Shown: positions 12,251 to 32,000 of the stretch, piece by piece
Layout: every line of letters starts with the position of its first letter
Numbering within the stretch: position 1 is the first letter of the stretch
Source of the DNA: Cyanidioschyzon merolae
Lineage: Eukaryota
NCBI GenBank assembly: GCA_000091205.1
Contig: AP006498.2
Length of the DNA: 64,000 nucleotides
Strand: one strand, 5' to 3'
Program-made: the position numbers and the translations under genes
Notes under the pieces: generated by a model
Database searches by the model: none
Seen by the model: only the letters and a program-made list of their open reading frames with translations
Told to the model about the DNA's origin: nothing

Positions 12251-12637
12251 ACAAAGAGCAGTCGTAGATACCGCGGGCAAAGGCTGGTGTCGTAGGTGAG
12301 AACTGGATGAGACCCAGTATAATGATTACATATGCCCGAGTTTGTTAAGTGGAACGTTTCAATTTATTCTGAAATGGACGTAGGGCATCGATGTCCTTCA
12401 TCAAGCACCTTGTGCAGCACAGAAAATGAACCAGAATTGTTCGCTTGTGTGTCGAGGCGGCAAACTCCTCCGCACAATATCCCCGGCCGAAATGCTCTCA
12501 CACGGGCTCAGAGACATCTCTCTGGCATTGACATCCGATGCTCCAGGCTAGCTCGTACTAGGTGGCGCACTCTTCTAATACGAGACAGCAGACATGCACG
12601 TGTGTTGCACCGAGCGACAACGCGCCGGCGACGTCCT

Positions 12638-14014
12638 TCAGTAGCCCAGGTACCTCACTGGGGGTTTCTTCTTCCGACGTGTGCCGTCTGCGAAGCCGTC
12701 CCGACGATCATCGGTTTCATCGCTATCACCGCGTAGGTCGTGCACAAACCCCCGGAGGCTGGCCATCACTTTGTGGGCTTGGCGTCGCAGTTCAGCAGCG
12801 CGAAGCTGCTCGAATGCATCGTAGGTTCGCGAGCCGCTCGTTCCGACATCCCGCGGTCTACGCCGCAAGTGCTGAAACTTTTGCCATCCAGGAACCGCCT
12901 CATACCGGTGATCGCGCATAATTGGAAAGCAGTTGAAACCCTCCTCGCCGGGAAGTGGCTCCTCCGCAATAGACTCAATGGTGGGCAGTTTGATGCAGTG
13001 GTCATCCACCATCGTGGCAAAATCTACGCGTTGACTCGACAAATAATCGTCAAAGTCCAGGCTGTCAGGCGCAATGCGAAATACATTGGCAAGCTCGTCT
13101 GCGACATGCAGCCAGCCAATGTAGATGAGAAAAACAGAAAGCACGTAAATAATGTCCAGCCAGCGATAGTTTCCAATATCGATGCTGCTGGACGTTGCGC
13201 TCAATAAATTCAGATTTCCCGCGAGCAGTATGACACAAATCACGTAGATGCGCACTGTTGCGTTCACGAGCTGGCGGTACATCAGCGGAACTGGAACCCA
13301 CATGGGCACATATAAATAACCGAAATATCCGCGCACGAGCGCAAGCTGCTGCACAAGCTGAAGATGAACGAATTCCGTGATGCCGTAGCGGTGGTTCTGA
13401 TCACGCAGGCGAGAAAGCAAGTGCCCAGCCCACATGACTGGCATCGTCCACTGGGCTCTGTCTACATCATTCTCCAGCCGGTATCGCTCCTCAGGTGTGA
13501 TCAAGCCAATACGTTCCATGGCCTCAGTGGTGCGGTACGCATGATCACCGCCAAGAAAAACATCGCGAAGCACCATAGCGAACGGAATGCAGATCCACCG
13601 GACAATGAGTTGCTTCAACCGTGCAGCGCCGATAGGGTCGTTATCATCATACACGAAGGACGTCATCTCGAGAGCAATATTGTAGGCAGCGATTTGGCCA
13701 GTGCCACACATGACAACACGAACACTCCACCAACGGGAATAGATTGTGCTAGTATAAAACCCCAGCATAAAGGTAAGAATTGGCGAAAGGACACTGACAA
13801 GTGCTGCGAGAGTATTCAGGAAGGGTATCGGCCATTCTGCAACGTAGAGCTTGAGCGCTATCACGAGCACTGCGGCACCGATCCAGGAAAGAAGTTCAAA
13901 GAGCAACCGCTGGACCAATGAGCCGTACCAATGAAAGAAGACTCTAGTCCATGAAAGGGGAAATACATAGTCTTTCCCGAACGTGGCTATGGGATCCTTG
14001 TAGTAGATTGTCAT
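12638..14014 (-). CDS. Bestrophin-family (RFP-TM) anion channel, copy 1 (identical to copy 2)
   Basis: 'ILTFMLGFYTSTIYSRWW', 'PVPLMYRQLV' and 'YIGWLHVADELANVFRIAPDSLDFD' align with the bestrophin TM2 (VLGFYV..RWW) and C-terminal ([23 protein letters not shown]) signatures. It is predicted to have several TM helices. Confidence 0.85.
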   Translation of the reverse strand: MTIYYKDPIATFGKDYVFPLSWTRVFFHWYGSLVQRLLFELLSWIGAAVLVIALKLYVAEWPIPFLNTLAALVSVLSPILTFMLGFYTSTIYSRWWSVRVVMCGTGQIAAYNIALEMTSFVYDDNDPIGAARLKQLIVRWICIPFAMVLRDVFLGGDHAYRTTEAMERIGLITPEERYRLENDVDRAQWTMPVMWAGHLLSRLRDQNHRYGITEFVHLQLVQQLALVRGYFGYLYVPMWVPVPLMYRQLVNATVRIYVICVILLAGNLNLLSATSSSIDIGNYRWLDIIYVLSVFLIYIGWLHVADELANVFRIAPDSLDFDDYLSSQRVDFATMVDDHCIKLPTIESIAEEPLPGEEGFNCFPIMRDHRYEAVPGWQKFQHLRRRPRDVGTSGSRTYDAFEQLRAAELRRQAHKVMASLRGFVHDLRGDSDETDDRRDGFADGTRRKKKPPVRYLGY

Positions 14015-14476
14015 CTCTGGGAAACAAACGTGCCGCGTACCAGGTAAAGGCGTCGCTGGCCTGTGGAAACCTCTTCGGGCTCTTCAAATACGCACAAACA
14101 CCGCTTGGGTGCTTGCGCAACTCTGATTTGTGCTTTGGTCGTCGAACGGGGACTCGCTCGCTCTTGAACAGCAGCCGCACTCGAGCCGTGTGCACGTTTC
14201 CAACCTACGAAAACGCGAACTCCCGCTTCCAGCAGGTATCCTGATCTTGTTGCCTCTACGGTCAGGACGCGCAGTAAGCCTGGTTCACGTACGTACCGAC
14301 TATTTACCGGTGATAGTCGTCCGATCGCAGTGAGACCTACGGCGTCCCGTGTGTTTCGCAATCTGTCTGCAATAGCCGTTAGACAACCTGTTTATGGTTG
14401 CTTTGTGGCTCTGTGGCAAACACACACGCCGACACCGAACACTTTCCAAAAGTCGAACGACGCCAGCGCTGTACAG

Positions 14477-15033
14477 TACTGGCGAGAAGCCCGCCCTAGA
14501 CAAGAAGTCTCCAGCTGACGTACGGACGCCTCCCAGTCTTCATGGACCGGGCACCTACTACTGCTTCCAATTGTTTCTCATATAGTTCCACTTTGGGAGG
14601 TTGCCCCCACAAAATTCTCTCTTGTCAGCGCTGGAGGTCTGCTTTCCAGCACCGCACATCTCCTGATATTGATGGCGGCATTAAAGTCTCGGTTCACAAA
14701 CTCCATACGTTTCTTGCCATCACTGGTTGTACTCACTAGTGCGAGTAGCCCTCGAACTTTCGCCCTTGTTTCCATTTGCTCCTCCGTCAGCGGTCCGTAC
14801 TTTTCTATGTCTTCAGGGCTCCGCTGGCACTTTTCCATCCCGACCCTCTTAAGTACGCACCCCAGTTCATGGTGTGTATAGGACGTTCGGAACCCATCTA
14901 TCGGTATCGTAACAAAACGCTGTGCGCACTCCCTGTATGTTCTTGTCGACGGAGCTGGTACACATTCTTTTTGGGTCTTCCATCGCCCTGCTCCGTATGC
15001 CACTACGAGCCTCTGACGCTCGTCCTCCTTCAT
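14477..15033 (-). pseudogene. Partial inverted copy of the 3' half of the central TnpB/Fanzor-like gene, including its conserved 3' tail
   Basis: The 181-aa ORF 14578..15123(-) shares '...KEDERQRLVVAYGAGRWK...EFVNRDFNAAINIRRCAVLESRP...SQSGTI' exactly with the 233-aa ORF at 15272..15973(+). The copy stops at the arm boundary. Confidence 0.7.
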
Positions 15034-15099
15034 AATCCATTTCCGTCTTCGATATTGTACGTGACGAAGCATGAAGATGAGAAGGAGGCGGGTCCTGCG

Positions 15100-16080
15100 A
15101 CGCAGAAAGTGCATGAGAACCACTTTGTCGTTGGCGCGGGCCCTGGGAACACGAATATCATGACCATCACAACACGCCGTTGTGGGGATGATGGCGTCGA
15201 CGGCAACTTACGTCAAAAAACACACGCGTGTTTTAAAGCGCTAAAGAACGAGATATTACCGAGAGTTCGGTGTGATGAATGCAAAGAAGAAAAGTGGAAC
15301 GTGGAGTGCTGGAGTGAAAAAGCACCTGGAAGCGATCAGCCAGGTGACGAGCCGAGAAGCGGACTTTAAAGCTTTTCGGAAATTCATGGAAGTTCGTGTT
15401 GCTCACTGGGATGCGCTGTGGGAGGGGCATACAAAGCCCCGGTGGGCTCGTCTGCGAATGAATCTATACTGTGGCAAGCAGCGCGCATTCGCGAACTTTT
15501 TCAACCAGCTGAGCGCCGTGAAGGAGGACGAGCGTCAGAGGCTCGTAGTGGCATACGGAGCAGGGCGATGGAAGACCCAAAAAGAATGTGTACCAGCTCC
15601 GTCGACAAGAACATACAGGGAGTGCGCACAGCGTTTTGTTACGATACCGATAGATGGGTTCCGAACGTCCTATACACACCATGAACTGGGGTGCGTACTT
15701 AAGAGGGTCGGGATGGAAAAGTGCCAGCGGAGCCCTGAAGACATAGAAAAGTACGGACCGCTGACGGAGGAGCAAATGGAAACAAGGGCGAAAGTTCGAG
15801 GGCTACTCGCACTAGTGAGTACAACCAGTGATGGCAAGAAACGTATGGAGTTTGTGAACCGAGACTTTAATGCCGCCATCAATATCAGGAGATGTGCGGT
15901 GCTGGAAAGCAGACCTCCAGCGCTGACAAGAGAGAATTTTGTGGGGGCAACCTCCCAAAGTGGAACTATATGAGAAACAATTGGAAGCAGTAGTAGGTGC
16001 CCGGTCCATGAAGACTGGGAGGCGTCCGTACGTCAGCTGGAGACTTCTTGTCTAGGGCGGGCTTCTCGCCAGTACTGTAC
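15100..16080 (+). pseudogene. TnpB/Fanzor-like RuvC nuclease pseudogene (family B, long copy) at the palindrome centre: RuvC-I-like block, bridge, RuvC-II-like, degenerate zinc finger, RuvC-III, plus a conserved 3' non-coding tail
   Basis: In the frame of ORF 14776..15369 the sequence 'HFVVGAGPGNTNIMTIT' corresponds to TnpB RuvC-I 'aGvDvGikdfaivT' with Asp replaced by Gly. After a frameshift, the 15272 frame reads 'KKKSG..SREADFKAFRKF' (compare TnpB 'RRKKGS...NKRQDFLHKL'). 'VAHWDALWEGH' sits at the RuvC-II position with E replaced by D. 'IPIDGFRTSYTHHELGC' is a degenerate 'TSxxCxxCG' motif. 'EFVNRDFNAAINIRR' is an intact RuvC-III. Confidence 0.6.
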
Positions 16081-16536
16081 AGCGCTGGCGTCGTTCGACT
16101 TTTGGAAAGTGTTCGGTGTCGGCGTGTGTGTTTGCCACAGAGCCACAAAGCAACCATAAACAGGTTGTCTAACGGCTATTGCAGACAGATTGCGAAACAC
16201 ACGGGACGCCGTAGGTCTCACTGCGATCGGACGACTATCACCGGTAAATAGTCGGTACGTACGTGAACCAGGCTTACTGCGCGTCCTGACCGTAGAGGCA
16301 ACAAGATCAGGATACCTGCTGGAAGCGGGAGTTCGCGTTTTCGTAGGTTGGAAACGTGCACACGGCTCGAGTGCGGCTGCTGTTCAAGAGCGAGCGAGTC
16401 CCCGTTCGACGACCAAAGCACAAATCAGAGTTGCGCAAGCACCCAAGCGGTGTTTGTGCGTATTTGAAGAGCCCGAAGAGGTTTCCACAGGCCAGCGACG
16501 CCTTTACCTGGTACGCGGCACGTTTGTTTCCCAGAG

Positions 16537-17913
16537 ATGACAATCTACTACAAGGATCCCATAGCCACGTTCGGGAAAGACTATGTATTTCCCCTTTCAT
16601 GGACTAGAGTCTTCTTTCATTGGTACGGCTCATTGGTCCAGCGGTTGCTCTTTGAACTTCTTTCCTGGATCGGTGCCGCAGTGCTCGTGATAGCGCTCAA
16701 GCTCTACGTTGCAGAATGGCCGATACCCTTCCTGAATACTCTCGCAGCACTTGTCAGTGTCCTTTCGCCAATTCTTACCTTTATGCTGGGGTTTTATACT
16801 AGCACAATCTATTCCCGTTGGTGGAGTGTTCGTGTTGTCATGTGTGGCACTGGCCAAATCGCTGCCTACAATATTGCTCTCGAGATGACGTCCTTCGTGT
16901 ATGATGATAACGACCCTATCGGCGCTGCACGGTTGAAGCAACTCATTGTCCGGTGGATCTGCATTCCGTTCGCTATGGTGCTTCGCGATGTTTTTCTTGG
17001 CGGTGATCATGCGTACCGCACCACTGAGGCCATGGAACGTATTGGCTTGATCACACCTGAGGAGCGATACCGGCTGGAGAATGATGTAGACAGAGCCCAG
17101 TGGACGATGCCAGTCATGTGGGCTGGGCACTTGCTTTCTCGCCTGCGTGATCAGAACCACCGCTACGGCATCACGGAATTCGTTCATCTTCAGCTTGTGC
17201 AGCAGCTTGCGCTCGTGCGCGGATATTTCGGTTATTTATATGTGCCCATGTGGGTTCCAGTTCCGCTGATGTACCGCCAGCTCGTGAACGCAACAGTGCG
17301 CATCTACGTGATTTGTGTCATACTGCTCGCGGGAAATCTGAATTTATTGAGCGCAACGTCCAGCAGCATCGATATTGGAAACTATCGCTGGCTGGACATT
17401 ATTTACGTGCTTTCTGTTTTTCTCATCTACATTGGCTGGCTGCATGTCGCAGACGAGCTTGCCAATGTATTTCGCATTGCGCCTGACAGCCTGGACTTTG
17501 ACGATTATTTGTCGAGTCAACGCGTAGATTTTGCCACGATGGTGGATGACCACTGCATCAAACTGCCCACCATTGAGTCTATTGCGGAGGAGCCACTTCC
17601 CGGCGAGGAGGGTTTCAACTGCTTTCCAATTATGCGCGATCACCGGTATGAGGCGGTTCCTGGATGGCAAAAGTTTCAGCACTTGCGGCGTAGACCGCGG
17701 GATGTCGGAACGAGCGGCTCGCGAACCTACGATGCATTCGAGCAGCTTCGCGCTGCTGAACTGCGACGCCAAGCCCACAAAGTGATGGCCAGCCTCCGGG
17801 GGTTTGTGCACGACCTACGCGGTGATAGCGATGAAACCGATGATCGTCGGGACGGCTTCGCAGACGGCACACGTCGGAAGAAGAAACCCCCAGTGAGGTA
17901 CCTGGGCTACTGA
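16537..17913 (+). CDS. Bestrophin-family anion channel, copy 2 (identical to copy 1)
   Basis: 458 aa, 100% identical to 12638..14014(-), with the same bestrophin motifs. Confidence 0.85.
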   Translation: MTIYYKDPIATFGKDYVFPLSWTRVFFHWYGSLVQRLLFELLSWIGAAVLVIALKLYVAEWPIPFLNTLAALVSVLSPILTFMLGFYTSTIYSRWWSVRVVMCGTGQIAAYNIALEMTSFVYDDNDPIGAARLKQLIVRWICIPFAMVLRDVFLGGDHAYRTTEAMERIGLITPEERYRLENDVDRAQWTMPVMWAGHLLSRLRDQNHRYGITEFVHLQLVQQLALVRGYFGYLYVPMWVPVPLMYRQLVNATVRIYVICVILLAGNLNLLSATSSSIDIGNYRWLDIIYVLSVFLIYIGWLHVADELANVFRIAPDSLDFDDYLSSQRVDFATMVDDHCIKLPTIESIAEEPLPGEEGFNCFPIMRDHRYEAVPGWQKFQHLRRRPRDVGTSGSRTYDAFEQLRAAELRRQAHKVMASLRGFVHDLRGDSDETDDRRDGFADGTRRKKKPPVRYLGY

Positions 17914-18306
17914 AGGACGTCGCCGGCGCGTTGTCGCTCGGTGCAACACACGTGCATGTCTGCTGTCTCGTATTAGAAGAGTGCGCCACCTAGTACGAGC
18001 TAGCCTGGAGCATCGGATGTCAATGCCAGAGAGATGTCTCTGAGCCCGTGTGAGAGCATTTCGGCCGGGGATATTGTGCGGAGGAGTTTGCCGCCTCGAC
18101 ACACAAGCGAACAATTCTGGTTCATTTTCTGTGCTGCACAAGGTGCTTGATGAAGGACATCGATGCCCTACGTCCATTTCAGAATAAATTGAAACGTTCC
18201 ACTTAACAAACTCGGGCATATGTAATCATTATACTGGGTCTCATCCAGTTCTCACCTACGACACCAGCCTTTGCCCGCGGTATCTACGACTGCTCTTTGT
18301 TCCTCT

Positions 18307-19559
18307 ATGGCGCATCCGGCTTGAAATATGCCGGTCTCTCGTGTCGCTCCAGCTCCGTTATCAGCTGCCGAAGGATGTTGATGGCAGATTTGACGTCCCA
18401 ATGCACCCGCTTCCGGTACTTGTTGGCGCACTTGACGAACAGGTTCAAGCTGCGACCTGCGCTTCGCTTGCCAGTTCCACCGTCTTCGTAGACAGAATGG
18501 GTGCGCCATTCGCAGCGGTGACGCTTGGCTGTGGCCAGGTGTTCCAATACGCCCGCAATGCCTCCTCTGATCGCTGCCCCCTGGCGCATAAATGAACAAT
18601 GCCTCGCTTGGCACAAGCCCTTTCCGAGTGGAGAAGCATCGCCCAGCATGCGCTACTCCGTTTCCGTACCCGGTGCCGTACCCAACGATCACGGGCCCGT
18701 TCTGGACAATACGCCGGCGAGTGCTCCGTCCCTTGCACGCACAAGCGCATGCTGCTCCATTCTTTAGACGATTTGGGGAACGCGGTGTTGTCCAAGGTGA
18801 AACAAGTACCGGAAGGAAAATACGGGCTCGGGGACAAGTCGAGCTATTTCGATCCGTCTACGCTCCCTTCGTGCAAACCGGTGATCCGCTCGCAAATGGA
18901 AGCGGTCGCTGCGATGATCGACGTCCGAGTCCAAGAAGCTTTTCCATGGAAGCAGAAGACACGAACGCCTCTGGGATCATACCTCGTCAGAAGCATGCTG
19001 CTGCTGCGGCTGCTGCGGCTGCTGTCGAGTTCAGTCTCGTCGATAGGCATGAAGAGAGCGGGATGTGTCGCTCGAACGGAATCAATTATTAGACATGAAA
19101 AGTGTAGTGAGCTTTCGGCACCATCTTGTGAACAAGCCGTCAAGTGACAACGTTGAGTTTCCTGATCGCCATCCCTGCGGCGCCAACTGCCGTCTCTACG
19201 ATTTGCCTGAAAACAGAAAGATCGGCAAACTAGGAGCTTGCGTGATCTGAGCATGCTACACCTAGGGAACAGACAAGAGTGGAGGCTTGTTCGTGCGCGT
19301 CGGATAACGATACCAGTTATTTTACGAACCGTCGTTCTGCTGCGTCGAGAATCGTCTTGATTTCGGTGACTTTTTGAGTTCGAGCAGCACAGCGCCGATG
19401 GAGTCACTCCGAAATGGACGATTGCGAGTCCGAAGACGCATTCGCATCCGAAAGAGCTCTTTCATGGACTACAGATATCGAAGCTGTATACATGACAAAA
19501 GTTCGGGAATGAATCCGCAAGGCAGGAATCGAGCATGCAGTTCAGTATTCCATTCTAAT
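18307..19559 (-). mobile_element. Family-A TnpB/Fanzor-like element, copy A2' (mirror of A2) at the outer end of the right arm
   Basis: Reverse-complement duplicate of 10998-12250. ORF 18305..18649(-) encodes the same '...FVKCANKYRKRVHWDVKSAINILRQL' peptide. Confidence 0.55.
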
Positions 19560-20372
19560 CTGATAGCCCCGTCGGCGACGAGGATCTCAGAGTCGGATTG
19601 CACCTGCACTGATTCCGGGGATCTTGGTGTGCATGATGGAAATCTTTGGAAAATGTTCTGCGAATGATGGAACACGGGAAGTGTTGGACGCTTCCACCGT
19701 GCGCCCAGCTCTTTCTGATGCCTCCGAAAATGGAATTTTCGGAGCGCTCTCGGACACTAGTCTTGTGTGCGGTGCTTTGCACTCGATGGACGCAAAGAGT
19801 ACCGAAGCGAATCCTCACGAAGTTACGGATTCGCGCTCATTCAAGCAATCCCGGAGACATACCATAGAGTTGACATCGACGTTGCGCTGCCTCGGACCTT
19901 ACCAGGGATTGGTCACAGCACAAACGTCGGCGTCGCTCATGCTGCAGCGCCGGCGCTCTAGGCTCACTGTGGGCCCCCCTATCAAGCACTTGGCCCCGGA
20001 GGATTGCACGAAGCGACGGTTATCTCCAAAGAAAAGCGCGCGTGGTTGTTGTTGGGGCTTGAAGATCTGTTGCCGCGGAATGGACGCTCTCTCTGATGCC
20101 GTCAACCCTCGCGCAGTCAAGGATTCCTTCGAGTGTGTAAACGAATCTACACACCCCTGTGGGAAATCGCTCGTGCGAGAGAAGATGTACTTTTAGGGAC
20201 AATAATGTATGTCTTGTACGTCCGTGCGCGTGGCCTCGACAGCAGCGCAGCACCTGCACCTTGCAGTCGTTTCGAGCGCGCAGCCAGTGCTTGTTGTAAA
20301 CGACCTAGTCTAGGGTTGCTGGGGCGGTCCTCGCGTCAGGCTGTCCGCCCGACACACCTTGCAATAGGCACC

Positions 20373-21815
20373 ATGCCGATTATGTACATGGATCCCGTGG
20401 CGAACCTGGGGAAGGACTACGTTCTTCCCCTTTCCTGGGTGCGCATATTTCTCTACTGGCACGGAAGCCTCTTGCAGCGCTTGCTGTTCGAAGTGTGCAT
20501 CCTGTTCGGTCTCGCTGCTTTTATTATTGCCATGAAGCTTTACGTTGCAGAGTGGCCACGCTTCCTTCTAGAAGTCTTTGCAAATATTGTCAACATTCTT
20601 TCAGGCGTGTTGACGCTCCTGCTGGGGTTCTATGCCAGCACCATCTACAGCCGCTGGTGGTACACGCGCACGAACATGTTCGGGACCGCGCAAGGTGGAG
20701 TGTACAACTGCGGTTTCATGTTGAACGCGCTCGTCTACGACGATGAGAATCCGGAACTTTGCGCCCGCTTTAAGCAGCGGTTTCTCCGTTGGATGAACCT
20801 CGCTTTCGGAATCATGCTCATGGACGTCACCTCTGGTGGATCGCATCTCTTCGAGTCCTTTGATAGCATGGAACGCATCGGTTTGGTGACCCCCGAGGAG
20901 CGCTATCGCCTGGAGCATGACGTGGAGCGTGTGCGCTTCACGCTGCCCATTATGTGGGCGGGTCATATGCTTACGCGCCTCCGGGATAATAATCACCAGT
21001 TTCACATTACGGATCGGGTACACATGCAGCTGTCGATCGAGTTGGCTTACTTGCGGCAGGGTCTCGGTGGATGCTATCTCATGAAGAACACACCGGTGCC
21101 GCTTCTCTATGTGCAGTTCGTGGAGGTTGCTGTCCGAATGTACGTTATTAGCATGATTCTGCTTGTAGGTGATTTGAACTTGCTGTCTGGAACCTTTCAA
21201 GAACGCGGCAACGATAGATGGGTCGATCTCGTCTACATCGCAGCGCTGTTTTTCATCTACGTCGGCTGGCTTCATGTAGCGGAGGAACTTGCAAACCCCT
21301 TCCGAATAGCCCCGGATGGACTCGATTTGGATGACCTTCTCTCCGGACAACGATGCGATGTGATGACCATGTCCGACTCGACGCGTCAACGTTTACCGAA
21401 ACCCGAGGTGATTCAGGAAGCGCCGCTTCCAGGAGAGCAGGGCTGGTATTTGCCGATTATAACCCGAGATCACAGCTACGAGCCTGTTCCCTACTGGTAC
21501 AGTTTTTGGTACAATCTCATCCGTCGCCGAAAGTGCAGCACCGCGCCTTCACCTCATTCCATTATTTGGGGATTCTATCCCGAGAAACAGCCGCTGCTTA
21601 CCGAGCCAGAAAAGAAACATGCAGCATCAAATCCATCGGCGTGGTCCAACGTAGTGCATGTACACCCGGGAGCTTCACAACATTGGAACGTGAGTCACCG
21701 CAACGACGGGCCAGCGCCCATGGCCTCACATTGCCCAAGCGGGCTGGTCAGTTCGGGTTTCGGCGGACTTGGTGTGGATAGCAGCAGTGCTGACGGCGGC
21801 GGCAGTGTATTATGA
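20373..21815 (+). CDS. Bestrophin-family anion channel, divergent paralog 3
   Basis: 'MPIMYMDPVANLGKDYVLPLSW', 'LLGFYASTIYSRWW' and 'YVGWLHVAEELANPFRIAPDGLDLDD' match the bestrophin motifs. The six-frame ORF starts at 20133, but homology to copies 1, 2 and 4 begins at the Met at 20373. It has a long Pro/Ser/Gly-rich C-terminal tail. Confidence 0.8.
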   Translation: MPIMYMDPVANLGKDYVLPLSWVRIFLYWHGSLLQRLLFEVCILFGLAAFIIAMKLYVAEWPRFLLEVFANIVNILSGVLTLLLGFYASTIYSRWWYTRTNMFGTAQGGVYNCGFMLNALVYDDENPELCARFKQRFLRWMNLAFGIMLMDVTSGGSHLFESFDSMERIGLVTPEERYRLEHDVERVRFTLPIMWAGHMLTRLRDNNHQFHITDRVHMQLSIELAYLRQGLGGCYLMKNTPVPLLYVQFVEVAVRMYVISMILLVGDLNLLSGTFQERGNDRWVDLVYIAALFFIYVGWLHVAEELANPFRIAPDGLDLDDLLSGQRCDVMTMSDSTRQRLPKPEVIQEAPLPGEQGWYLPIITRDHSYEPVPYWYSFWYNLIRRRKCSTAPSPHSIIWGFYPEKQPLLTEPEKKHAASNPSAWSNVVHVHPGASQHWNVSHRNDGPAPMASHCPSGLVSSGFGGLGVDSSSADGGGSVL

Positions 21816-22503
21816 ACATTGTCCGGAGCTTTGGCATGCTTCTAAAGATGGAAAGCAGCTGGACCGCGCAGGCGGGATGCATCTTCCTCGTGTTGAGCGC
21901 TTCGCGTGGAGGATTCCCAAAAGGAGAATTTTAGTGCTGCGCGAATAATATTCTGATGAAACGAGTTTGTGGATGCTGAGCGGCAAACATGTGCGCCATG
22001 CGCACCGACGATGACAATGACCAACGCTTTCAGAACGCCAAGTACGTGCCGAGTGACGTCATCTACCTAGCGAATGCCTGGCTTCTCAGAGCAGACAGCT
22101 GGCACACAGTAGCGAGGCGCCGAGGCTTCGCCGCATGCATCCGCCATGCCGCTGACGCTCCAAAGCCACCGATCTGACCCTGCCAGTGAAGATGCTGGTA
22201 CGATTTTATTGATTCATTTTGCCAGTCAATCTGTATGACATACGATCGTTTTCTTTCCGCAAAACGCGTAAAAGTTGTATACGCTTTTGACGTTACGTGG
22301 AACGAATCGGTGGGTGCATCTCGTGGCGATTCTGCTCAGTTGTCTTTGACTTTGTGACCTACGCTCGGCGCGATTCCAGCACTCTGGACAGGTACACCAC
22401 AAGCCTCGGTGAGATGCGGGCATCATTGCCATTAGAGGCGAATCTCTGTCGTCTGCGCTGGTTCGCCGAGGCTACGCTAGCAAGCCCTATCATTTGGTGC
22501 ATG

Positions 22504-23154
22504 TTATGAAGACTCCTTGGGTTCAAACTTCAAGGAGTAAGAGTTCATGCAGTAGCGAAGCCCGGTCGGCTTGGGACCATCAGGAAAAACGTGCCCCAGG
22601 TGCGCGTCGCAGACCGCACAAAGCACCTCCGTACGTATCATACCATGCGATAGATCCCGTCTCTCTTTGACAGCCTCTTTGCTCAGGGGAGCATAAAACG
22701 AGGGCCAGCCCGTGCCACTGTCGAACTTTGTTTCGCTGGAAAATAACGGCGTTCCACAGCAGACACACCGATATATCCCCGTGCGTTTTTCGTTCCAGTA
22801 CTCGCCGGTAAAAGGCCGCTCGGTGCCAGCTCGTCGCGCTACCTCGAACTGCATCGGCGTGAGACGTGCTTTCCAGTCTTCTTCAGTGAGAGCTCGCCAG
22901 TCTTTTACGTCCGCTGGGTTGCTCTGACTCATTTTCAGACGCGAGCTACCTTTCACAAGCTGGGTCAGCTGTCCACGCTGCAGAGACGCTCTCCAGAAAG
23001 CAACACCGAGGACGGTACGCTGCTGCTGCTGCTGCTGCTGCACGGTGTTGCCAGAGTACAGAACACGGCAACACTGCTTGCACTGGTACTGTAAACGTGC
23101 TTGCTGAACAAGTGGTGAAGTGAAAATACTAACGAACATCAAAACAGGTATCAC
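22504..23154 (-). CDS. msrB: Peptide methionine-(R)-sulfoxide reductase MsrB (SelR domain)
   Basis: 'RYCxNSxSLxF' C-terminal region, 'GTGWPSF' and '[10 protein letters not shown]' with two CxxC pairs (CVCCG, CAVCDAH). The N-terminal 74 aa carry a (CAG)n-encoded poly-Q run. An alternative start at Met75 (22932) would give a canonical ~143-aa MsrB. Confidence 0.85.
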
Positions 23155-23649
23155 TGCAACCGTCTAGCGAATCGTCTCCGAGAAACCAGAAATTAACAGT
23201 GATTTAAGAATCGGAGATGCAACGAAGAAAAGTTACGCAACAATATTCACTGTACACAGTTGTCCAGGATCGTCTACAGTGCATGTGCATGCACGCGGTT
23301 CCGAGATGACGCCTCGGCACGCAGCAATGCATGGCGTTTCGGGTTGCCTGAGTGGCGGCGCAATCAGCATCGCGGCAAGCGCCCGCGATAGGCGCAGTAT
23401 GCCGAGAACTCTTTGCCCGCAGACAAACAACTAATCTCTATGTCGAACGGAGGGACTGTTCTTGAGCTAGTGGAACGTTGAAGCGTCTGAAGTAATACGC
23501 AACTATGATGGAATTGAGCAGCATTGTGAAGTGCATTGGAGGTGTTCGTTCAAGTTTTCTTGTCATAGTTTTTCACCTAAATTGTGTTCCACTCCTCCGG
23601 TGCGTGTCATCAAATGCGTGTTCGCGGTTTATAGCGGATTCGTTCGAAG

Positions 23650-24150
23650 TAGGTTCATTTCCAAAAATAAAAATCTAAGGATCAGGTATCGACATGCAAG
23701 GCGGGGATCCAGGAGGACCCTCATCACTGGCTGCCTGAGTAAAAAACGAAACAAATCCTCTTCTCGCCGATCATCGAGCGAAGAAGAGCAAGTGACCAGG
23801 AAGAAAAAGGCGAAGAAGATGACGATGAGAGATCGGCGAGAAAATGTATTTGGTCAACGGAACGATGACGTCCCTTTGGTGGCAAAGAGGGCTCGCGTTC
23901 TGACAACTATTTTAAAGGTGAGCTCAACCAGAGGCAATAAACGCATAGAGTTCGTGAACCGAGACTTCAACGCCGCCATCAATATCATGAGATGCACGGT
24001 GCTGGAGACGAGACCCGAGGAGCTGAGGCGATCCAAGTTTGTGAGGCAGCCTCTCAGGCTCGTTCTGTGCATGAATAAACCTAAATCGATAGCAGGGTCG
24101 CGGTCGAACAGGGCAGGGACGCGTCTACGGGTGGGTATTCACGCACCCTG
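23650..24150 (+). mobile_element. Family-B short non-autonomous TnpB/Fanzor-derived repeat, copy B2
   Basis: It begins 'ccaaaaataaaaatctaaggat' like 1030. 23740-24140 aligns with 31610-31990 ('...tcatcgagcgaagaagagcaag...', '...cagcctctcaggctcg...'). It encodes 'KRIEFVNRDFNAAINIMRCTVLETRPEE' (RuvC-III) with no upstream RuvC-I or RuvC-II. Confidence 0.55.
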
Positions 24151-26272
24151 CTTGCTCGTGGGACTTTGTTTCTTTCATTGACGATAACAGTGACGATAAT
24201 CACGGACAGAATATCCACCTGTGTGCACTTTGTAAAGCTCCTGAAACCTAGGCCACAGTCGAGTAACGAAGCTCATTGTCTACCGTTCAGGGTAGATCAA
24301 GAGACAGACTTCGGGGTCGGCGTGGACCCGGGAGCTGCAGGATGTCACGCCCGATTTTTAACCTCTGAATGAGGAGGCCGGCGCCAAAGACCTACTCGGA
24401 AGGAAGCTGACCCTGTTCAAGCTTTCCAGGGCAGGGGATTATCGAGATTCGGGCATAACGTTCGCCAGCAGGGATACCAGCAAGTGGAACGACGGCGTCC
24501 GGGCCCGACTCTCGACGCTCTGGACACCGTATCGAGCAGACGGGGGCATGCTTTGCACGCTTGATTCATAGATCATATGAGCCTCAAAACGTCTCCTGCG
24601 GGCGGTCTTTGGCAGCAGTACACACGGGCGCGCGGGGTCGGAAACCGATTCGGTTGAACGGAGGCAGCCATCGTGTATGCGCCAACTTGTCAGATGTGTT
24701 CGAACGAGAAATGATCGACACGTCGCGCTGTTTCGCGGAAGCCTAAGGCGCTGGACGTGGTTTAACGCGCATGAATGCGCTCCTACTCTTCGACCAGAGC
24801 GTGCAACGAGTGCAGGAACCGATCCTCAACGATACCCCAGCCCTGAGTTCGGGACGGCGTGCACGCATCCCGAGCACAGGTGCATGCTGAAACTGGTAGC
24901 AAAGAAGAGACGGAAATAAAGTTGGATGCTCGAGCTGGTGTACGGTAAGCTGACTGTGTGTCAGATGGCGAGCGAGTCGCAAGTGCGACGCGTGCTACAA
25001 TCTGAGTCCACCGCCATCCATGAGAGAAAGCAACTTCTGCACCGATATCTCAAAGCCTTGAAAAGCGTACGGAAATGTCTCGTGCCTCCGAAGAGTTCGG
25101 TGGCTTTGTGTGGCGCGAGCTTTCGGGAATTATTTCGTATCCTATCCATGCATTGTGCTGAAACACAGAAGAGTATTTATAAAAAATCAGGGCCAGGAGC
25201 GAGGGGGCGGCCTTCGTTTCTCGCCCGGAGCAAGGCTCTGGTATGGTACGATTCAGCTACCGAACGACATTGGTGCACCGTACACATACATCGTCAATGA
25301 TTTTCCTCGGCAACTGATACACCATTATTTGAGACGACGAATATAGAACAGAGTCAAATTGATGGATCAAAGCAGGTGAGCGGGGGCATAGACCTTGCGT
25401 TTCCGCAGACGGATTCCGGATGATGCCGCTTGTGTGATTTTTTCGTTGACAAGTCGCCCGCAGGGGACACGAACCTCCAAGTTCCCACAGAGAGGACACT
25501 TTGAGGCCAGTGCTGGACCGCACGGCCTGCAAGACCTGTGTTCGCTCCATACCCCTGTAGTATCTCCTATGGACGTGCTTTCCACGACTTATTCTGTCCA
25601 AACGAGCGTTTGCCCACAAAGATCTGGTCCATCAAAGTTGAGTTCAAGGCACAAGCGCAAGTAAAGCCAATTTTGGGCCCTGTACAATATGCAGGTGGCC
25701 TTCACAGCATACGCTTCGTTCCTCGTTTACGACGCGGCGAACGAGTGCTTCCGCGGAGGCGACCACGCACACAACCCCTGAAACTGAGCAGCTACAAACT
25801 GCATTAGTGGACCTGGAAGACCTGTTTCTCCTGCTTTGTATTCGTCTCGTCATCGAGCCCAGCGTATTCAGTAAACTTCCGTGCAAGTCACGGTTTACGT
25901 GCAGGTTTTCTTCGTAGACTCCGCCTTGTCCTGGAGAGTTTACGCTCGATTACGAGCAGCCTCGTAGGTAAACTTCGAAACAATTCGCCATTTACGTGCA
26001 GATGCCTATCCAGATGCTGCGACGTCCTGCTGAAATCACTCTCGTAGACGTGCAGTTTCGTGCAGGCCGCCCCTAGTTCTGTTCGAACTCGCGCGTCCAG
26101 CAGCGAGCCTCGTTGCTGAGCGCTGCGCTCGGCACCGAATGCCTCTGCGGCTTGCACATGCTCGCTCAGAAGCGTTCGTGTTGCACTGGGGGGTTCATCG
26201 CAGCGTACGCCAAGTCACTGTGACCAGATCATAACGTTTCGGCTTCCGCTACGCGGCTTATACGGTGAGTTC

Positions 26273-28156
26273 GTGCGCCGGATGCAAGACTATGAAGCTC
26301 TGCGCGAGTTGCGCTGGTGCGGAGCGGAGCTACACCGCGTCGCCGGTGCCCAGCTGGTGTCTCAGAGCACTGCTCTCGAGCGCACCAGTACTCTTGTAAG
26401 AAGCCTGCTTGAAAAGAAGGACTTTATGGAGGAGAACTGGAAAGAGGTGCTGCATCTGCAATCACAGTGGTTCTGCTGTTTGCAGACCCTGGTGCAGCGC
26501 TCAGTACAAGCGGAAAAGCCAACGTCAAAGCCCAGCTGTGCGGTAGTCGGAGCGCTCGAAGCGTCACTGCAACGGATAGCGCCAGTGGTTGTTCGATTGG
26601 GCACGGAGCAGGATATGGCGCTCGTTTTCAGCATCGCAGGCGGTCTCTGTGCTTTAGAACTGCTGAGCTGGTCCCAGTGCTGGCACGTCCTCGTGCGTCA
26701 ACTTTTGGACAGCAGCATCGATGACGCAGCACGTTGGCAAACCGTCCTGGTGCAGGGGTGTGCCGCAGCGTTTTGCGACCTGCGTTTGCATACGCTCCAC
26801 GCAGTAGCGCACCTGCTACGTGAATCGAGTTCGGTATACTCGACGCCTGCACCCGGGGCTGCGCTTGACTTGGCGGCGCGTGCGGAGAATGCATGGCGGT
26901 TCGTTTTGAAGCCCATTGGGCGACTACTCACCAAGGATGTGGCAAAGCAGCACCAGCAGCTGCTCAGTGAGGTCTTGCGGCGAGTCACGACGCCATCGCA
27001 ACGCGGAGACCGGCAGCAGCGACTACTGAAAGCATCCCGAAAGGCATTCACGGATGCGATGCTGGCGCTGCTGTCGACCGGTGAACACGGAATCGATTTG
27101 TCTGCACCCGTCCTCCTCGATGTTTTCGGAGAGCTTGTAGACAACCTCCTGCCGAACCATTGTATCGCAGAGCCGCTCCGACTGGGTGACTTTCTCGCGG
27201 AGACTTTTCGCGAGGCGATTGCCGGTCGTTCTGTGTATGGGATCGCAGCACTGGAGCCGCTGCTGTTTCTCATGCGCCACGATGGCCTCGAGTACGAACA
27301 CATATATGAGCAAGTGTATTCCAAGCTGGACGTACACACGCTCCTGCGACTGAACGCATGTGAGTCGGCCACAAGGGGGCGAGTGCTGCGCGCTGTCACG
27401 CAGCTATTGACGTCTAGCCACCTTCCGCATGCACTCATCAGCGCCTATACGAAGCGCCTTGCCCGGATAGCGCTGCAGAGCTGGGATGCAACACTGACGC
27501 TGTGGGCGCTTCGCTTGACGCTCGAACTCGTGCATCGCCATACGAGTGCGCGTCTGCTGCTCGAGTCGTGGTTCAAGCGACAGCAACCCGACAGGGAGCC
27601 TGTCATCGAAAGCAGCTGCTCGGACTCGACACCACGTCGTCGGGATCAGAGCGAGGCCTCGTTTGAGGCATCAGGGACCGGTGTGGTGCGTTCGACTCCC
27701 ACGAAACGCCTTGCATATGGATTCGTGTTTTGGGAGCGATCCAGCGGTCAACGAGCCGGAGATGAGTGCGCTAGTTCGACGCCCGGGCTGACGAACGACC
27801 CGTTTTTGGCCGATGAGCCAGATCCGCGTCGCTCCAACGCCTCTGCGAGTTTCCTCTGGGAAGTGGGTATGCTCTCTGAGCACTTTGTTTCCAGTGTTCG
27901 ACAACTCGCCGCTTTGTTCGAGGACCCGGAAAAGGCGATCAGTCGGGCGGGTCCGCTGGACGCCTGGTGTGATGCCTCACTTCGGGACCTTATCGAGTTG
28001 GAGTTACGCCGCTCCCAACATTTGGTGCGGAACAAGCCGATCGCGTTTGAGGCACCCAGGGACGACGACATCGTCGGAGACTCTGGATCAAAGGTAGAAG
28101 CTCAATTTACAGCGCATGCTGCGAATGCAAAAGTCATATTTGGTGAATATTCATAG
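26273..28156 (+). CDS. Hypothetical protein (627 aa), leucine-rich alpha-helical; no family recognised by eye
   Basis: Long uninterrupted ORF with coding-like composition and GC3 bias, lying between bestrophin paralogs 3 and 4. Confidence 0.4.
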   Translation: MRRMQDYEALRELRWCGAELHRVAGAQLVSQSTALERTSTLVRSLLEKKDFMEENWKEVLHLQSQWFCCLQTLVQRSVQAEKPTSKPSCAVVGALEASLQRIAPVVVRLGTEQDMALVFSIAGGLCALELLSWSQCWHVLVRQLLDSSIDDAARWQTVLVQGCAAAFCDLRLHTLHAVAHLLRESSSVYSTPAPGAALDLAARAENAWRFVLKPIGRLLTKDVAKQHQQLLSEVLRRVTTPSQRGDRQQRLLKASRKAFTDAMLALLSTGEHGIDLSAPVLLDVFGELVDNLLPNHCIAEPLRLGDFLAETFREAIAGRSVYGIAALEPLLFLMRHDGLEYEHIYEQVYSKLDVHTLLRLNACESATRGRVLRAVTQLLTSSHLPHALISAYTKRLARIALQSWDATLTLWALRLTLELVHRHTSARLLLESWFKRQQPDREPVIESSCSDSTPRRRDQSEASFEASGTGVVRSTPTKRLAYGFVFWERSSGQRAGDECASSTPGLTNDPFLADEPDPRRSNASASFLWEVGMLSEHFVSSVRQLAALFEDPEKAISRAGPLDAWCDASLRDLIELELRRSQHLVRNKPIAFEAPRDDDIVGDSGSKVEAQFTAHAANAKVIFGEYS

Positions 28157-28892
28157 AGTGCGTCCTGGTGTCTTGTGTGGCGTCACACTTGCGGAAACGC
28201 AGCGTCACTGGCGTGCAGGCAGCAGCTGCGATGCTCTCGCGTTGACGAGATTTCCGTCGTTATGGTGAACGCTTTCGAGCGACATTCCTGGTACATTCCT
28301 GCTGCGTTCTGCTAGATGATTCGGCAGGAGCGCCATCAGGTCGTTCCAGACCAGTGCGCGAGGTAACAGCAGCTGCAGCAGGTCCAACGCCTGCGACGCG
28401 AAGACAACGCTGCGCTGGATGTCTCGATGGTATCATAGCACCGATCGCAGCGACACCGCTGAGATGGACTTGAAGCAGTGGCGTCCAAGCGAGCTCCTCG
28501 ATTCTACGCTTCTGTGGATCGTGCAGCTCGAGCGGGACGGGAACGTGACTGGAGCAAGACGTGGTTCAGTGCGCACTGCTTGAAGCCGACGTACACGCTC
28601 GTCGAGCTAGTGTCACCGCTCCGTCATCGTGAAACGAAAACGCCTGTTCGGATTCGGGATCAGCGCCACACACGCTCCGTTCTGACTTGTCGGTAATGCG
28701 TCCTGCGTTAGCACGCAGGGCGTATCTGTGCTCCGTATCGACATGTGCGGAGGCACGGGGGCGCTTCTTCGGTGCGGGATACCTGCGGAGCACCCACCGC
28801 ACGCAGGCGAGGAACGTTATCGAAGCCAGACCGTGCTGGTTGCGCTTGTTTGCGCGGATATTGTGCTTGGCCAGGCGATGCGCTTGACGAGT

Positions 28893-30275
28893 TCAGAATC
28901 CGTAGTACCGGATCCTTTCGGGAGGTCCGGTCCAACATCGGGTGGTGCCACGTAGTGACGTGTTGCCCTGCAGTCCGATGCTTTGGGCCCAGTCCGTCTG
29001 CGTCGGAGCTGTGGTATCGTCGGTTGCGAACGTCTCCTCATCCGAGAGCAGGCGTTGGCGCACCCGCTGGAAAAAGTCGTATGTCTTTGCATGGCCGTCT
29101 TGTCGACTTGCTTTGACGGTCCGAATATACTCCTTGTACTTGTTCCAGCCTGGGACCGCCTCGTAAGCGTGATCACGCCACACGAACGGACAATTCCAGT
29201 TCGGATCGCCCGGTAGGGGCTCGTCGTTGATGGAATCCACTGTGGGCAAGCGGATACTGTTGTCGTCGACCATAGTGGCGTGGTCCGCTCGCTGACTCGA
29301 GAGATAATCGTCAAAATCGAGGCCATCTGGGGCTATTCGGTACGGATTTGCGAGCTCGTCTGCAACGTGCAACCAACCAATATAAATGAAGAAGACGCTC
29401 ACAATGTAGACCATATCGGTCCAACTGTAGTTGGCGGAATCCGTCCCCGAGCTGGTGGCACCCAAAAGCTGCAGGTTCCCAGCAAGCAGGACGACAACGA
29501 GAATATAGATTCGTACAGCGGCACTCACAAGCTGCCGGTACATAAGAGGCACTGGCACTGTCACAAAAACGTACATGCTTCCGAGGCCTTGACGAAGGCT
29601 TGCCAACTGCTGTGAGAGCTGCAAGTGGACCCAATGCGTCACTCCGTAGTTCGGCTCGTGGTCTCGCAGGCGCGTAAACGTGTGTCCCGCCCACATCAGA
29701 GGCAGCGTGAAACGAACTCGGTCCACGTCGTGCTCAATGCGTTGGCGCTCCTCTGCCGTCATCATGCCGAGCTGCTCCAGGGAATCAAAGGAGTTGTACA
29801 GGTGCGTTCCATCGGTTATAATCTCACGCAACACGAGCGCAAACGCGAGGTTGCACCAACGCACAATTCGCTGTTTGAGACGTGCAGCTGTTATCGGGTC
29901 CTTGTCGCTGTAAATAAACTGAGTCATCTCCATGGCGATGTTGTAGGCGGCCATCTGCGCGGTGCCACACATGGAGACGCGCGCGTCCCACCAGCGCGAG
30001 TATATCGTGCTCGTGTAAAAACCCAGCATAAACGTGAGAATTGGAGATAGCACGTTCGCCAAAATCGCCAAAACAAGGAGAAACGCATGAGTCCACGTCG
30101 CAACGTACAGCTTGAGCGCGATCACGAGCGCCGCCAGCGCTAGCCATAAGATTATTTCGAACAGCAGCCGCTGCATCAGAGAACCGTGCCAGTAAAAAAA
30201 GAGCCGCAACCATGACAGGGGCAGAACATAGTCTTTCCCGAAAGTGGCAACGGGGTCTTTGTACAGGATGGTCAT
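28893..30275 (-). CDS. Bestrophin-family anion channel, paralog 4
   Basis: 'MTILYKDPVATFGKDYVLPLSW', 'ILTFMLGFYTSTIYSRWW' and 'YIGWLHVADELANPYRIAPDGLDFDD'. It is ~70% identical to copies 1 and 2. The ORF extends to 30302, but the homologous start is the Met at 30275. Confidence 0.85.
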   Translation of the reverse strand: MTILYKDPVATFGKDYVLPLSWLRLFFYWHGSLMQRLLFEIILWLALAALVIALKLYVATWTHAFLLVLAILANVLSPILTFMLGFYTSTIYSRWWDARVSMCGTAQMAAYNIAMEMTQFIYSDKDPITAARLKQRIVRWCNLAFALVLREIITDGTHLYNSFDSLEQLGMMTAEERQRIEHDVDRVRFTLPLMWAGHTFTRLRDHEPNYGVTHWVHLQLSQQLASLRQGLGSMYVFVTVPVPLMYRQLVSAAVRIYILVVVLLAGNLQLLGATSSGTDSANYSWTDMVYIVSVFFIYIGWLHVADELANPYRIAPDGLDFDDYLSSQRADHATMVDDNSIRLPTVDSINDEPLPGDPNWNCPFVWRDHAYEAVPGWNKYKEYIRTVKASRQDGHAKTYDFFQRVRQRLLSDEETFATDDTTAPTQTDWAQSIGLQGNTSLRGTTRCWTGPPERIRYYGF

Positions 30276-31051
30276 GGACGCAGTTTGTGGTCCGGCGCAC
30301 AAGGCAAGCCGCCACGCGTCCGCGCAGGCAACAACGTGCTCACGGGGAATACTGGCGTGTCGGTGCCGAGCCTGCGCGCGGCACTAGCGCCCCAGTCCAA
30401 TATGTCCATAAGATCTACTTGATTCACTAGATGTCAAGTTAAGGACAGGTATGAGACTGCTCCCAGGGGCACCCATCCGGATGCTACCGCTGATTAAGCG
30501 ACGCGTTCCGGTGTTCACGGGTGCATGGCTCGTCGAGCGGAACCCCTTTTCCCAAGGTCAGCGAATGCACTGCACAGCGCTTGGCACTTGCGCCTCGAGA
30601 CAGTTAGGCAGTTATCGGAGCGCTTGAGGCAACTTGGGGATCGCCAGCGGGGGCCAGCGTGCCACGACTGAACTTGGTGCGGCCGGCTGACTCGCCTATC
30701 GCCTCCGCCCACTGCCGGGTTCGGCATGGAGCCGAGGATGCTCGACCTTTCGCACTGCGCGGGTTCGAGATTTGTTTTATTCGGGTATTTGAACTGAAAT
30801 TTATTCCAGACCAGCTGATTCCACTCGAATGCTTTTCTGCAGTGTATGGCAGGAGATCCAAATCACGATGCAACGTACCGTATAGATCGTAGACGAATTG
30901 CATGCAGGATACATGTATGACTGAACAGCGCAGAGAAGAATGCGTTCGTACTTCATGTCAGTCATACGATGGTACCGTGATGGTTGAGGAACGCTGAAAG
31001 ATCTAAGTAGACGCGCTTCGCGCCAAAATCCGATATTTTTACAGACTGTTT

Positions 31052-32000
31052 GCGATCTGTGGTAGAAAACGACACGTTGATCACTTTACAGAAAGCAAAA
31101 GCGATGATAATAGGCGTCACAGGCATCTCTGTTTCGCAACAGCATGTTCGTTTGGTCTTGAAAACAGTCGGATACTGTCGCAATAAAGTCCTAGTTCACA
31201 CACGGTATCCTGCACCGAAATCCCAGCTACTACAGCGTCCCTAGAACGTCGTGATCGGTATGAAGCAAAGGAACGTCGGTCTGTTTTTCCCGACTCTATC
31301 GGGGAGTAGAGCTGCTTTTGATTCCTCCATACTTTCCATGGTTCCTCCCCATCGATGGATACTTTTCTATTGTGAAACGTGGTGATCGCTATACTGGGCG
31401 AGGCGCTGAGGTGTTAAGCATACCGTTACACACCGGGCCACATGACATCGTTCTTCCGCAAGACCTTCTTCTTCCCCAGGGAGATGGGTGCTCACCTAGC
31501 CGCATAAACAAGAGTATTCATTTTCAAGAAAAAACTATCGAAAGGAAAGTTTTGGGAACGAAAATCGGGGATACCACAAGGCCGTCATCGCGGAGTTCGA
31601 CAGCGAAACGAAAAAATTCTCCTCTCGTCGATCATCGAGCGAGGAAGAGCAAGCGACGAAGGTGTCAATGATACGCGAGAAAAGGTGTTTCCCCGACGGG
31701 ACGACGACGATACTGTATTGGAACTGAGGCGCAACTTCGAGGACATGCTCGATTGCTGAGTTCCATCAGCGTCAATACACGGACGGAGTTCGTGAACCGA
31801 GCCCTTAACAGTGCCATCAATACCAGACGACATGCGGTGCTCCAGAAGAAACCTGAGGAGATGAAGGGATACAAGTTTGTCGCACAGCCTCACAGGCTCG
31901 AAATATGTAGGAATAAACAGATACCGACAGCAGGTGTCCGGTCAAAAGGGGCTGGGAGGCGTCTGCGCGTTGGGATTCATTTACCCGAGCGAGCATCGAC
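31052..32000 (+). mobile_element. Composite repeat E3 (family C+B), same family as 285-2090
   Basis: 31052-31500 is homologous to 285-1000 (for example 'ggtagaaaacgacacgttgatcac' vs 'ggtagagaaccggtccgttgaacgc', and the 'tcctccccatcgatgg' block). 31540-32000 is homologous to 23650-24150 and encodes the degenerate 'TEFVNRALNSAINTRRHAVL'. Confidence 0.5.

Follow-up and report, generated by a model that had tools for sequence, protein, structure and literature searches.

A bestrophin locus of Cyanidioschyzon merolae, a red alga: predicted classical-type channel paralogs and a gene-bearing palindrome

Does an algal gene annotated as bestrophin encode a thylakoid channel of the carbon-concentrating mechanism (CCM), and what does the local multiplication of such genes mean? 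Both questions are raised by a 64,000-nucleotide (nt) stretch of the genome of Cyanidioschyzon merolae 10D (GenBank assembly GCA_000091205.1, contig AP006498.2, a 908,485-bp chromosome; the whole stretch is called the window here and all positions refer to it), in which four bestrophin copies, c1 to c4, lie between positions 12,638 and 30,275. A preliminary description of the window, made from the letters alone, took them for a locally amplified cluster that could reflect dosage or diversifying selection on anion transport, in the manner of the thylakoid bicarbonate or anion channels of green algae and diatoms. Our analysis makes a different account likely, namely that the locus carries three anciently diverged paralogs of the classical, animal-like bestrophin type, that c1 has been doubled by a palindrome kept identical by gene conversion, and that the products are predicted anion channels of a non-plastid membrane.

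Four open reading frames and their family type

The bestrophin genes of the window are as follows.

12638-14014, minus strand: copy 1 (c1), 458 aa, the inverted duplicate; exactly identical to BAM81823.1/BAM81824.1 (P0013); Pfam PF01062 E 8.5e-34
16537-17913, plus strand: copy 2 (c2), 458 aa, with the same DNA as c1, in the ancestral orientation upstream of c3
20373-21815, plus strand: copy 3 (c3), 480 aa, with a G/S-rich C-terminal tail; identical to BAM81825.1
28893-30275, minus strand: copy 4 (c4), 460 aa, identical to BAM81828.1, within a block inverted relative to the sister genera

All four are complete, uninterrupted open reading frames (ORFs) without introns, at the places first described, and their three distinct proteins match annotated C. 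merolae 10D entries exactly (BAM81823.1 and BAM81824.1 are two entries for the one c1/c2 sequence). GenBank names each product "similar to bestrophin", so the genes were already known from public annotation. The c3 start at 20373 is backed by orthologs beginning MPIMYADP or MYADP, and DNA homology to Cyanidiococcus sets in just 7 nt upstream of it. Copies c1 and c2 are 100% identical at the DNA level, as had been noticed. The roughly 70% identity first given for c4 against c1 was somewhat high, the measured values being 61% for the whole protein, 66% over residues 1-330, the channel domain, and 60.6% for DNA; c3 is indeed the more divergent copy, at 50% protein and 53.6% DNA identity to c1 and 49% and 57.8% to c4. 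Two motifs had been reported for all four copies: LGFY(T/A)STIYSRWW is present in 4/4, and the second, with its pattern ELANP(F/Y), fits c3 and c4 only, the c1/c2 version reading YIGWLHVADELANVFRIAPD, that is, ELANVF with V for P. This valine, V311 (window positions ~13082-13084 and 17467-17469), stands at the position of P297 of animal BEST1; C. merolae and Cyanidiococcus have valine there in their c1 lineage, and all other paralogs, like Cyanidium, have proline.

Membership of the bestrophin family, proposed at the outset, is borne out by profile, sequence and fold searches. Against PF01062 (Bestrophin; gathering threshold 24.2 bits) the three distinct sequences score 115-140 bits (E 8.5e-34, 7e-33 and 1.6e-40), covering profile positions 1-299/303 of 324 in c1/c2 and c4 and 16-307 in c3, and each has a weaker secondary match of 57-79 bits to PF25539 (Bestrophin_2). 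A phmmer search of the Protein Data Bank (PDB) with c4 ranked chicken, human and bovine BEST1/BEST2 first (E 7e-24 to 5e-17, 88-65 bits), followed by KpBest (E 4e-8 to 5e-6, 36-29 bits) and thylakoid VCCN1 (7ek1; E 0.037, 16 bits). An AlphaFold2 model of c4 from a 10-sequence alignment was poor (predicted local distance difference test, pLDDT, 58.6) and was superseded by one from a 74-sequence alignment, with pLDDT 79.4 overall and above 90 in most 10-residue blocks of residues 40-330. Foldseek placed that model closest to chicken BEST1 (4rdq; E 1.3e-11, probability 1.00), its top BEST1/BEST2 matches having target-normalised TM-scores of 0.70-0.83 over 320-412 aligned columns, with KpBest next. 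Each paralog type has four transmembrane helices. By PDB matches and Pfam scores, then, c1-c4 are not closer to the BST/VCCN1 type of photosynthetic organisms than to the classical type, and the c1, c3 and c4 types each encode, by sequence and modelled fold, a classical, animal-type bestrophin subunit.

The alignment to chicken BEST1 extends this to the predicted pore. The LGFY...RWW segment, rightly called pore-lining in the preliminary description, corresponds to the pore-neck helix, and the neck is hydrophobic, with F82/F86 in c1/c2/c4 and L82/F86 in c3 at the places of BEST1 F80/F84; a 2-residue gap leaves both L80 and P78 eligible as the equivalent of I76. The aperture residue V205 is matched by V216. 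In place of the BEST1 clasp EDDDD the C. merolae proteins have a conserved (I)APD(G/S)LD(F/L)DD, and across this region, RIAPD(G/S)LD(F/L)DD, the equivalents of D304, F305 and E306 are retained, D301 aligns to A, and the acidic residues are conserved in 9/9 Cyanidiales sequences.

Most of the difference between the paralogs lies in the cytosolic C-terminal tails, which change faster than the rest of the protein, so that regulation or trafficking, and not pore chemistry, is probably what sets them apart. The c1/c2 and c4 tails share a conserved ...R(Y/I)xY(L/Y)G(Y/F) ending, with ...RYLGY in c1/c2 (12641-12655 and 17896-17910) and ...RYYGF in c4 (28896-28910), just as first reported; c3 is instead G/S-rich. 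A G-[FY] C-terminus following basic residues recurs in many algal classical-type bestrophins (RYLGY, RYYGF, QYLGY in Cyanidium, ...TGF in the uncultured P0174 and P0177), with exceptions in Cyanidium (PYLGM), P0173 (...TGH) and Phaeodactylum (...SDF), and may serve as a conserved signal for sorting or regulation.

An exhaustive HMMER search gathered 1360 relatives (the alignment query otherwise returned the same 9 proteins as a single query). The closest outside the Cyanidiales come from Porphyridium (P. purpureum FVE85_7864 and P. aerugineum), Timspurckia and Phaeodactylum tricornutum (XP_002183772.1), at E 1e-103 to 3e-57, and nematode bestrophins follow. The Phaeodactylum protein (P0175/P0322) is itself a classical-type bestrophin without a presequence that pairs with Porphyridium purpureum in a neighbour-joining (NJ) tree (98%), a grouping consistent with a red-algal origin, and it is probably distinct from the thylakoid proteins PtBST1-4.

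The N-terminus and a role in carbon concentration

Where would such channels reside? Position 1 of the Pfam profile aligns to residue 1 of c1/c2 and c4, which open with the conserved MT(I)xY.DP as BEST1 does; the c3 match starts at residue 21, and c3 opens with the homologous MPIMY. An MT(I/V)xY start at residue 1 is common to the Porphyridium, Timspurckia, Phaeodactylum and nematode homologs. Since residue 1 is already the conserved start of the channel, no room is left for a transit peptide, and the Pfam and homolog alignments, used here without a dedicated targeting predictor, reveal no N-terminal presequence in any of c1-c4. An in-frame upstream extension of c3 (GTG at 20133, ATG at ~20202) was considered as a transit peptide and rejected, as it is not conserved in the orthologs. 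Going by their homologs, these proteins are most likely pentamers acting as anion (Cl-/HCO3-) channels, and their membrane would be a non-plastid one, either the plasma membrane or an endomembrane.

In the account originally proposed, c1-c4 serve the CCM as bicarbonate/anion channels of thylakoid or plastid, functionally like Chlamydomonas BST1-3 or the diatom BSTs, and were amplified under selection on inorganic-carbon transport. The host is a red alga with a plastid, as had been surmised, and its CCM is non-pyrenoid with an unidentified thylakoid bicarbonate transporter (PMC10154280); red algae are reported to lack orthologs of the BST clade as defined by Nigishi et al. 2024 (PMC11142338), so a substitute channel would be needed. 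Against this stand the nearest neighbours in sequence and fold, which are animal BEST1/2 and not the VCCN1/BST type (7e-24 for BEST1/2 against ~1e-7 for KpBest and 0.037 for VCCN1, with PF01062 above PF25539), and the absent N-terminal extension, residue 1 lying within the conserved channel fold. BLAST searches with CrBST1 retrieved CMN088C only (26% identity, E 8e-3) and those with CrBST2 and CrBST3 gave no match, so that the four bestrophin genes were missed (Steensma et al. 2023, PMC10154280). The three paralog types are moreover old and under purifying selection, as set out below. We therefore regard a BST-like thylakoid role as very unlikely. A variant starts from the same reported absence of the BST1-3 clade in red algae, on account of which classical bestrophins could be non-orthologous bicarbonate/anion channels of a pyrenoid-less CCM, or channels of acidophile pH/ion homeostasis, whose route to the membrane would have to do without an N-terminal transit peptide, with the palindrome as a selected increase in the dosage of one subunit; we give this an equally small chance.

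Locus history, the palindrome and neighbouring repeats

Cyanidiococcus yangmingshanensis (L004) and Cyanidium caldarium (L014) each have exactly three bestrophin genes, arranged as a direct tandem in the order Ldh(-), c1-type(+), c3-type(+), c4-type(+), CBF(-), MsrB/SelR(+), and C. merolae and Cyanidiococcus share 76-78% DNA homology per ortholog pair. The conserved neighbours in the C. merolae window are as follows.

22504-23154, minus strand: MsrB (SelR) gene, Pfam PF01641 E 9e-56, syntenic, inverted along with c4
26273-28156, plus strand: CBF/Mak21-family gene, Pfam PF03914 E 4.5e-23, syntenic, inverted along with c4

The NJ tree (Kimura distance, 300 bootstraps; classical-type sequences, with BST1-3, VCCN1 and KpBest left out) unites the nine Cyanidiales sequences in one clade at 100%, with 95% support for the c4 orthogroup, 85% for the c3 orthogroup and 100% for the C. 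merolae and Cyanidiococcus c1 pair. Nonsynonymous divergence (dN) between C. merolae and Cyanidiococcus is 0.075 for c1, 0.128 for c3 and 0.077 for c4, with synonymous divergence (dS) saturated; with dN so far below saturated dS, all three types are under strong purifying selection, and not the diversifying selection first suggested. Judged by synteny and the tree, the paralog types are older than the divergence of Cyanidium, Cyanidiococcus and Cyanidioschyzon. The three divergence levels noticed in the window thus come from an old triplication and, in addition, a single duplication of very recent date, and "locally amplified" holds for c1/c2 only. Between c1 and c2, it is c2 whose orientation and place upstream of c3 agree with both sister genera. 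Three features are specific to C. merolae: the c1 palindrome, the inverted state of the c4-CBF-MsrB block and the remnants of Fanzor-like transposons.

The surroundings might also suggest that at least one copy lacks function, as a pseudogene in decay or a passenger carried by transposons: degenerate remnants of Fanzor-like elements and further dispersed repeats surround the genes, and c1/c2 have valine at the P297 equivalent. All four ORFs are intact, however, each type has been kept across three genera with dN at or below 0.13 against saturated dS, the proline-to-valine change is also in the Cyanidiococcus ortholog, and the genes occupy a syntenic, not a transposed, position, which leaves decay or passenger status very unlikely.

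Copies c1 and c2 stand head-to-head in a palindrome made up of the following parts.

10998-15032: left arm, from repeat analysis; metagenome contig L005 crosses its inner junction to 15451 and L001 ends at 15032
15033-15518: spacer, unique, 486 nt, the middle of a degenerate Fanzor-like ORF
15519-19559: right arm, from repeat analysis; metagenome contigs L016-L020 start 121-141 nt inside its outer boundary at 19559
15033-15973, plus strand: degenerate, frameshifted TnpB/Fanzor1-like remnant recognised by motifs, its 3' part mirrored at 14578-15032 (minus)

The arms are alike except for 6 nt gained or lost in a (GCT/GCA)n microsatellite. This microsatellite, at 11535-11555 and 18996-19016, is hypervariable in length among metagenome contigs. 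The inner breakpoint falls within the Fanzor-like remnant, transposon homology starting exactly at 15033. Microhomology at the junction is limited to an 8-nt GAAGGAGG repeat (15081, 15520), insufficient to assign a mechanism.

The palindrome is real. A 66.8-kb metagenome contig (L005) spans unique sequence of the left flank, then the left arm and the first 418 nt of the spacer, another (L001) stops exactly at the arm/spacer junction, in two (L009 and L015) the same protein turns up in the right-arm context with c2, c3, MsrB, CBF and c4, and five (L016-L020) start 141, 127, 127, 127 and 121 nt inside 19559, one assembler k-mer into a two-copy repeat. An assembly origin of the duplication had been named among the findings that would refute the first account, and with contigs crossing or breaking at the junctions the duplication passed that check. 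Although artefacts are known to take the form of perfectly identical arms around a short spacer and the sister genera have three bestrophin genes only, a fold-back chimera or collapsed repeat in a genome truly with three genes is largely refuted and hardly credible, given two annotated genes with identical products (BAM81823.1 and BAM81824.1), an independent contig across the novel arm/spacer junction, the same protein in both flanking contexts, and six independent contigs that break exactly at arm boundaries, as a two-copy repeat predicts.

Arm-to-arm comparison within 10D gives 0 substitutions in ~4 kb. Between 10D and wild contigs we counted 19-30 substitutions over the 3.7-4.0 kb of arm covered (0.47-0.80%), similar to the 0.42-0.53% in unique flanks; these contigs were assembled from short reads of separate metagenome samples, and assembly may have collapsed the two arms. 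Against the at least 19 differences expected, zero between the arms has a Poisson probability of ~6e-9, and at least 15 of the 10D-wild differences are common to left-context and right-context contigs. Arms that are the same within 10D and differ between strains, together with shared junctions and shared differences, point to homogenisation by gene conversion.

These observations suggest the following history. The ancestral locus would have been the direct tandem triplet Ldh(-), c1(+), c3(+), c4(+), CBF(-), MsrB(+), into which, in the C. merolae lineage, a Fanzor-type transposon was probably inserted upstream of c1. An inverted duplication of a 4-kb c1 segment, with its inner breakpoint within the transposon, would then have produced the c1/c2 palindrome, and the c4-CBF-MsrB block would have been inverted as well. 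As arm-to-arm gene conversion would keep the arms identical, the practical effect would be a doubled dose of one subunit type.

The transposon remnants do flank the bestrophin genes, as tblastn, blastn and metagenomic relatives confirm for what had been called a transposon-associated cluster. Two more lie within or at the edge of the inverted block.

23531-24181, plus strand: Fanzor-like fragment within the inverted block (tblastn, blastn; repeat families D1/D2)
30837-32079, plus strand: Fanzor-like remnant adjoining the c4 5' end, where the inverted block stops on its right side (tblastn, and blastn matches at 62-2062 and 23744-24141)

Further dispersed degenerate TnpB/Fanzor1-like remnants occur in the window at 62-2062, 43944-44285 and 52020-52533. 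The remnant at 15033-15973 keeps a RuvC-I-like FVVGAGPGNTN (15124-15156), IDGFRTS (15650-15670) and NRDFNAAINI (15857-15886), with the RuvC motifs mutated (D to G, E to G) and the ORF frameshifted. Acidic hot spring metagenomes hold 228 relatives of it, the longer ones intact-looking with DPGNTN...DEFRTS...NRDFNAAINI, and none of the 228 has a Pfam domain call. Pfam and PDB sequence searches with the transposon ORFs returned nothing significant (Pfam Cas12f1-like_TNB at E 0.2-1.7), so the assignment as Fanzor-like draws on these motifs and on the report of a Fanzor1 element, CMe-1A, with ~150 copies in the C. merolae genome (Bao & Jurka 2013, PMC3627910). Four contigs (L006, L007, L009 and L013) have dense mismatches to the remnant in their first ~250 nt (window ~15694-15967), probably through chimeric joining to further copies of this element.

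Other repeats were noted nearby. Positions 42642-43543 and 50221-51302 form a direct repeat, 99% identical, with a core of 300 nt (42642-42941/50221-50520) and near-identical ORFs extending to ~900 nt; because each copy lies ~400-700 nt upstream of a Fanzor-like fragment, the two may be copies of a longer composite element. A dispersed repeat of 66-69% identity occupies 18262-18907 in the c1/c2 3' flank (mirrored in the left arm), 3286-3929 and 54979-55127. The 1.6 kb of arm past the c1/c2 gene has no counterpart in Cyanidiococcus, whose c1-c3 spacer is only 370 nt there.

Meaning of the locus and comparison with known systems

Several points weigh against the account favoured here, of classical-type paralogs, a conversion-kept palindrome and a non-plastid membrane. 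The acidic Ca2+ clasp of BEST1 (E300-D304) is matched in part only, and the animal RFP motif is absent, the aligned residues being NSF in c4 (direct BEST1 alignment), RTT in c1/c2 and ESF in c3 (paralog alignment); gating may consequently differ from that of BEST1, and the Ca2+ dependence of the C. merolae proteins is uncertain. The RFP motif defines the animal subfamily ("RFP-TM") and not the Pfam family. Cyanidium CDCA05G1592 is the c1 ortholog by position and tail features, and its placement in the NJ tree has only 52% support. A missing presequence does not formally exclude residence in a plastid membrane, which may be reached by another route. To these is added the possible collapse of arms in the contigs behind the gene-conversion comparison, and searches of the literature turned up no work on how Cyanidiophyceae bestrophins function, whether on their conductance, dependence on Ca2+, oligomeric state, localisation or expression.

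As a set of genes the locus is ordinary, with a predicted channel function, and it leaves the current understanding of bestrophins and algal carbon uptake unchanged. What the analysis adds is the ancestral state of the locus as a triplet, the rearrangements particular to the C. merolae lineage and a palindrome that is real and apparently kept identical by gene conversion. It also corrects an attractive inference: an algal gene annotated as bestrophin is not automatically a CCM or thylakoid channel, the classical and BST/VCCN1 types being clearly separable by sequence, fold and N-terminal architecture. C. merolae offers a small, tractable case of three conserved predicted channel paralogs in an organism with routine gene targeting, and its 4-kb palindrome would record gene conversion still at work within one chromosome of a very compact genome.

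Animal BEST1 and BEST2 are Ca2+-activated pentameric Cl-/HCO3- channels, and their structures (PDB 4rdq, 6n26, 8d1i, 6vx5) supply both the top sequence and the top fold matches of the C. merolae proteins. Common to the two groups are the MTIxY N-terminus, the LGFY..RWW neck helix, the F80/F84 equivalents, the aperture valine, VPxPLxYxQ and GWLxVAExLxNP(F/Y), and the segment C-terminal of the core aligns too. Identity is nevertheless only 21-24%, with a 2-residue deletion directly before the neck and a 2-residue insertion in the clasp region, and the C. merolae tails are short, those of c1 and c4 sharing the conserved ending described above.

Chlamydomonas BST1-3, diatom PtBST1-4 and VCCN1, anion channels of photosynthetic organisms, belong to the same superfamily with the same pentameric bestrophin architecture (PMC9076864). 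They localise to the thylakoid or pyrenoid (PMC11142338, PMC6708349), whereas the C. merolae proteins are without an N-terminal extension, and VCCN1 has marginal sequence similarity only to them. KpBest, of the PF25539 type, shares the core fold (target-normalised TM-scores 0.75-0.84), but its solved chains have just 296-301 residues, far fewer than the 458-480 of the C. merolae proteins, and its match stops at query residue 319-320. The red-algal and diatom classical-type homologs have the same N-terminal start and motifs as C. merolae, likewise without a presequence, yet are only 21-29% identical to c4 (alignment A2) and carry long cytosolic-loop insertions; the tandem triplet was found in Cyanidium, Cyanidiococcus and Cyanidioschyzon, and not for these other homologs.

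For the palindrome, the closest likeness is to the ampliconic palindromes of the primate Y chromosome, which bear genes and are homogenised by arm-to-arm gene conversion. Both have near-identical inverted arms around a short unique spacer, with identity within a lineage and divergence between lineages, but the C. merolae palindrome is tiny by comparison, with 4-kb arms and one gene in a 16.5-Mb genome, and its inner breakpoint lies in a transposon remnant.

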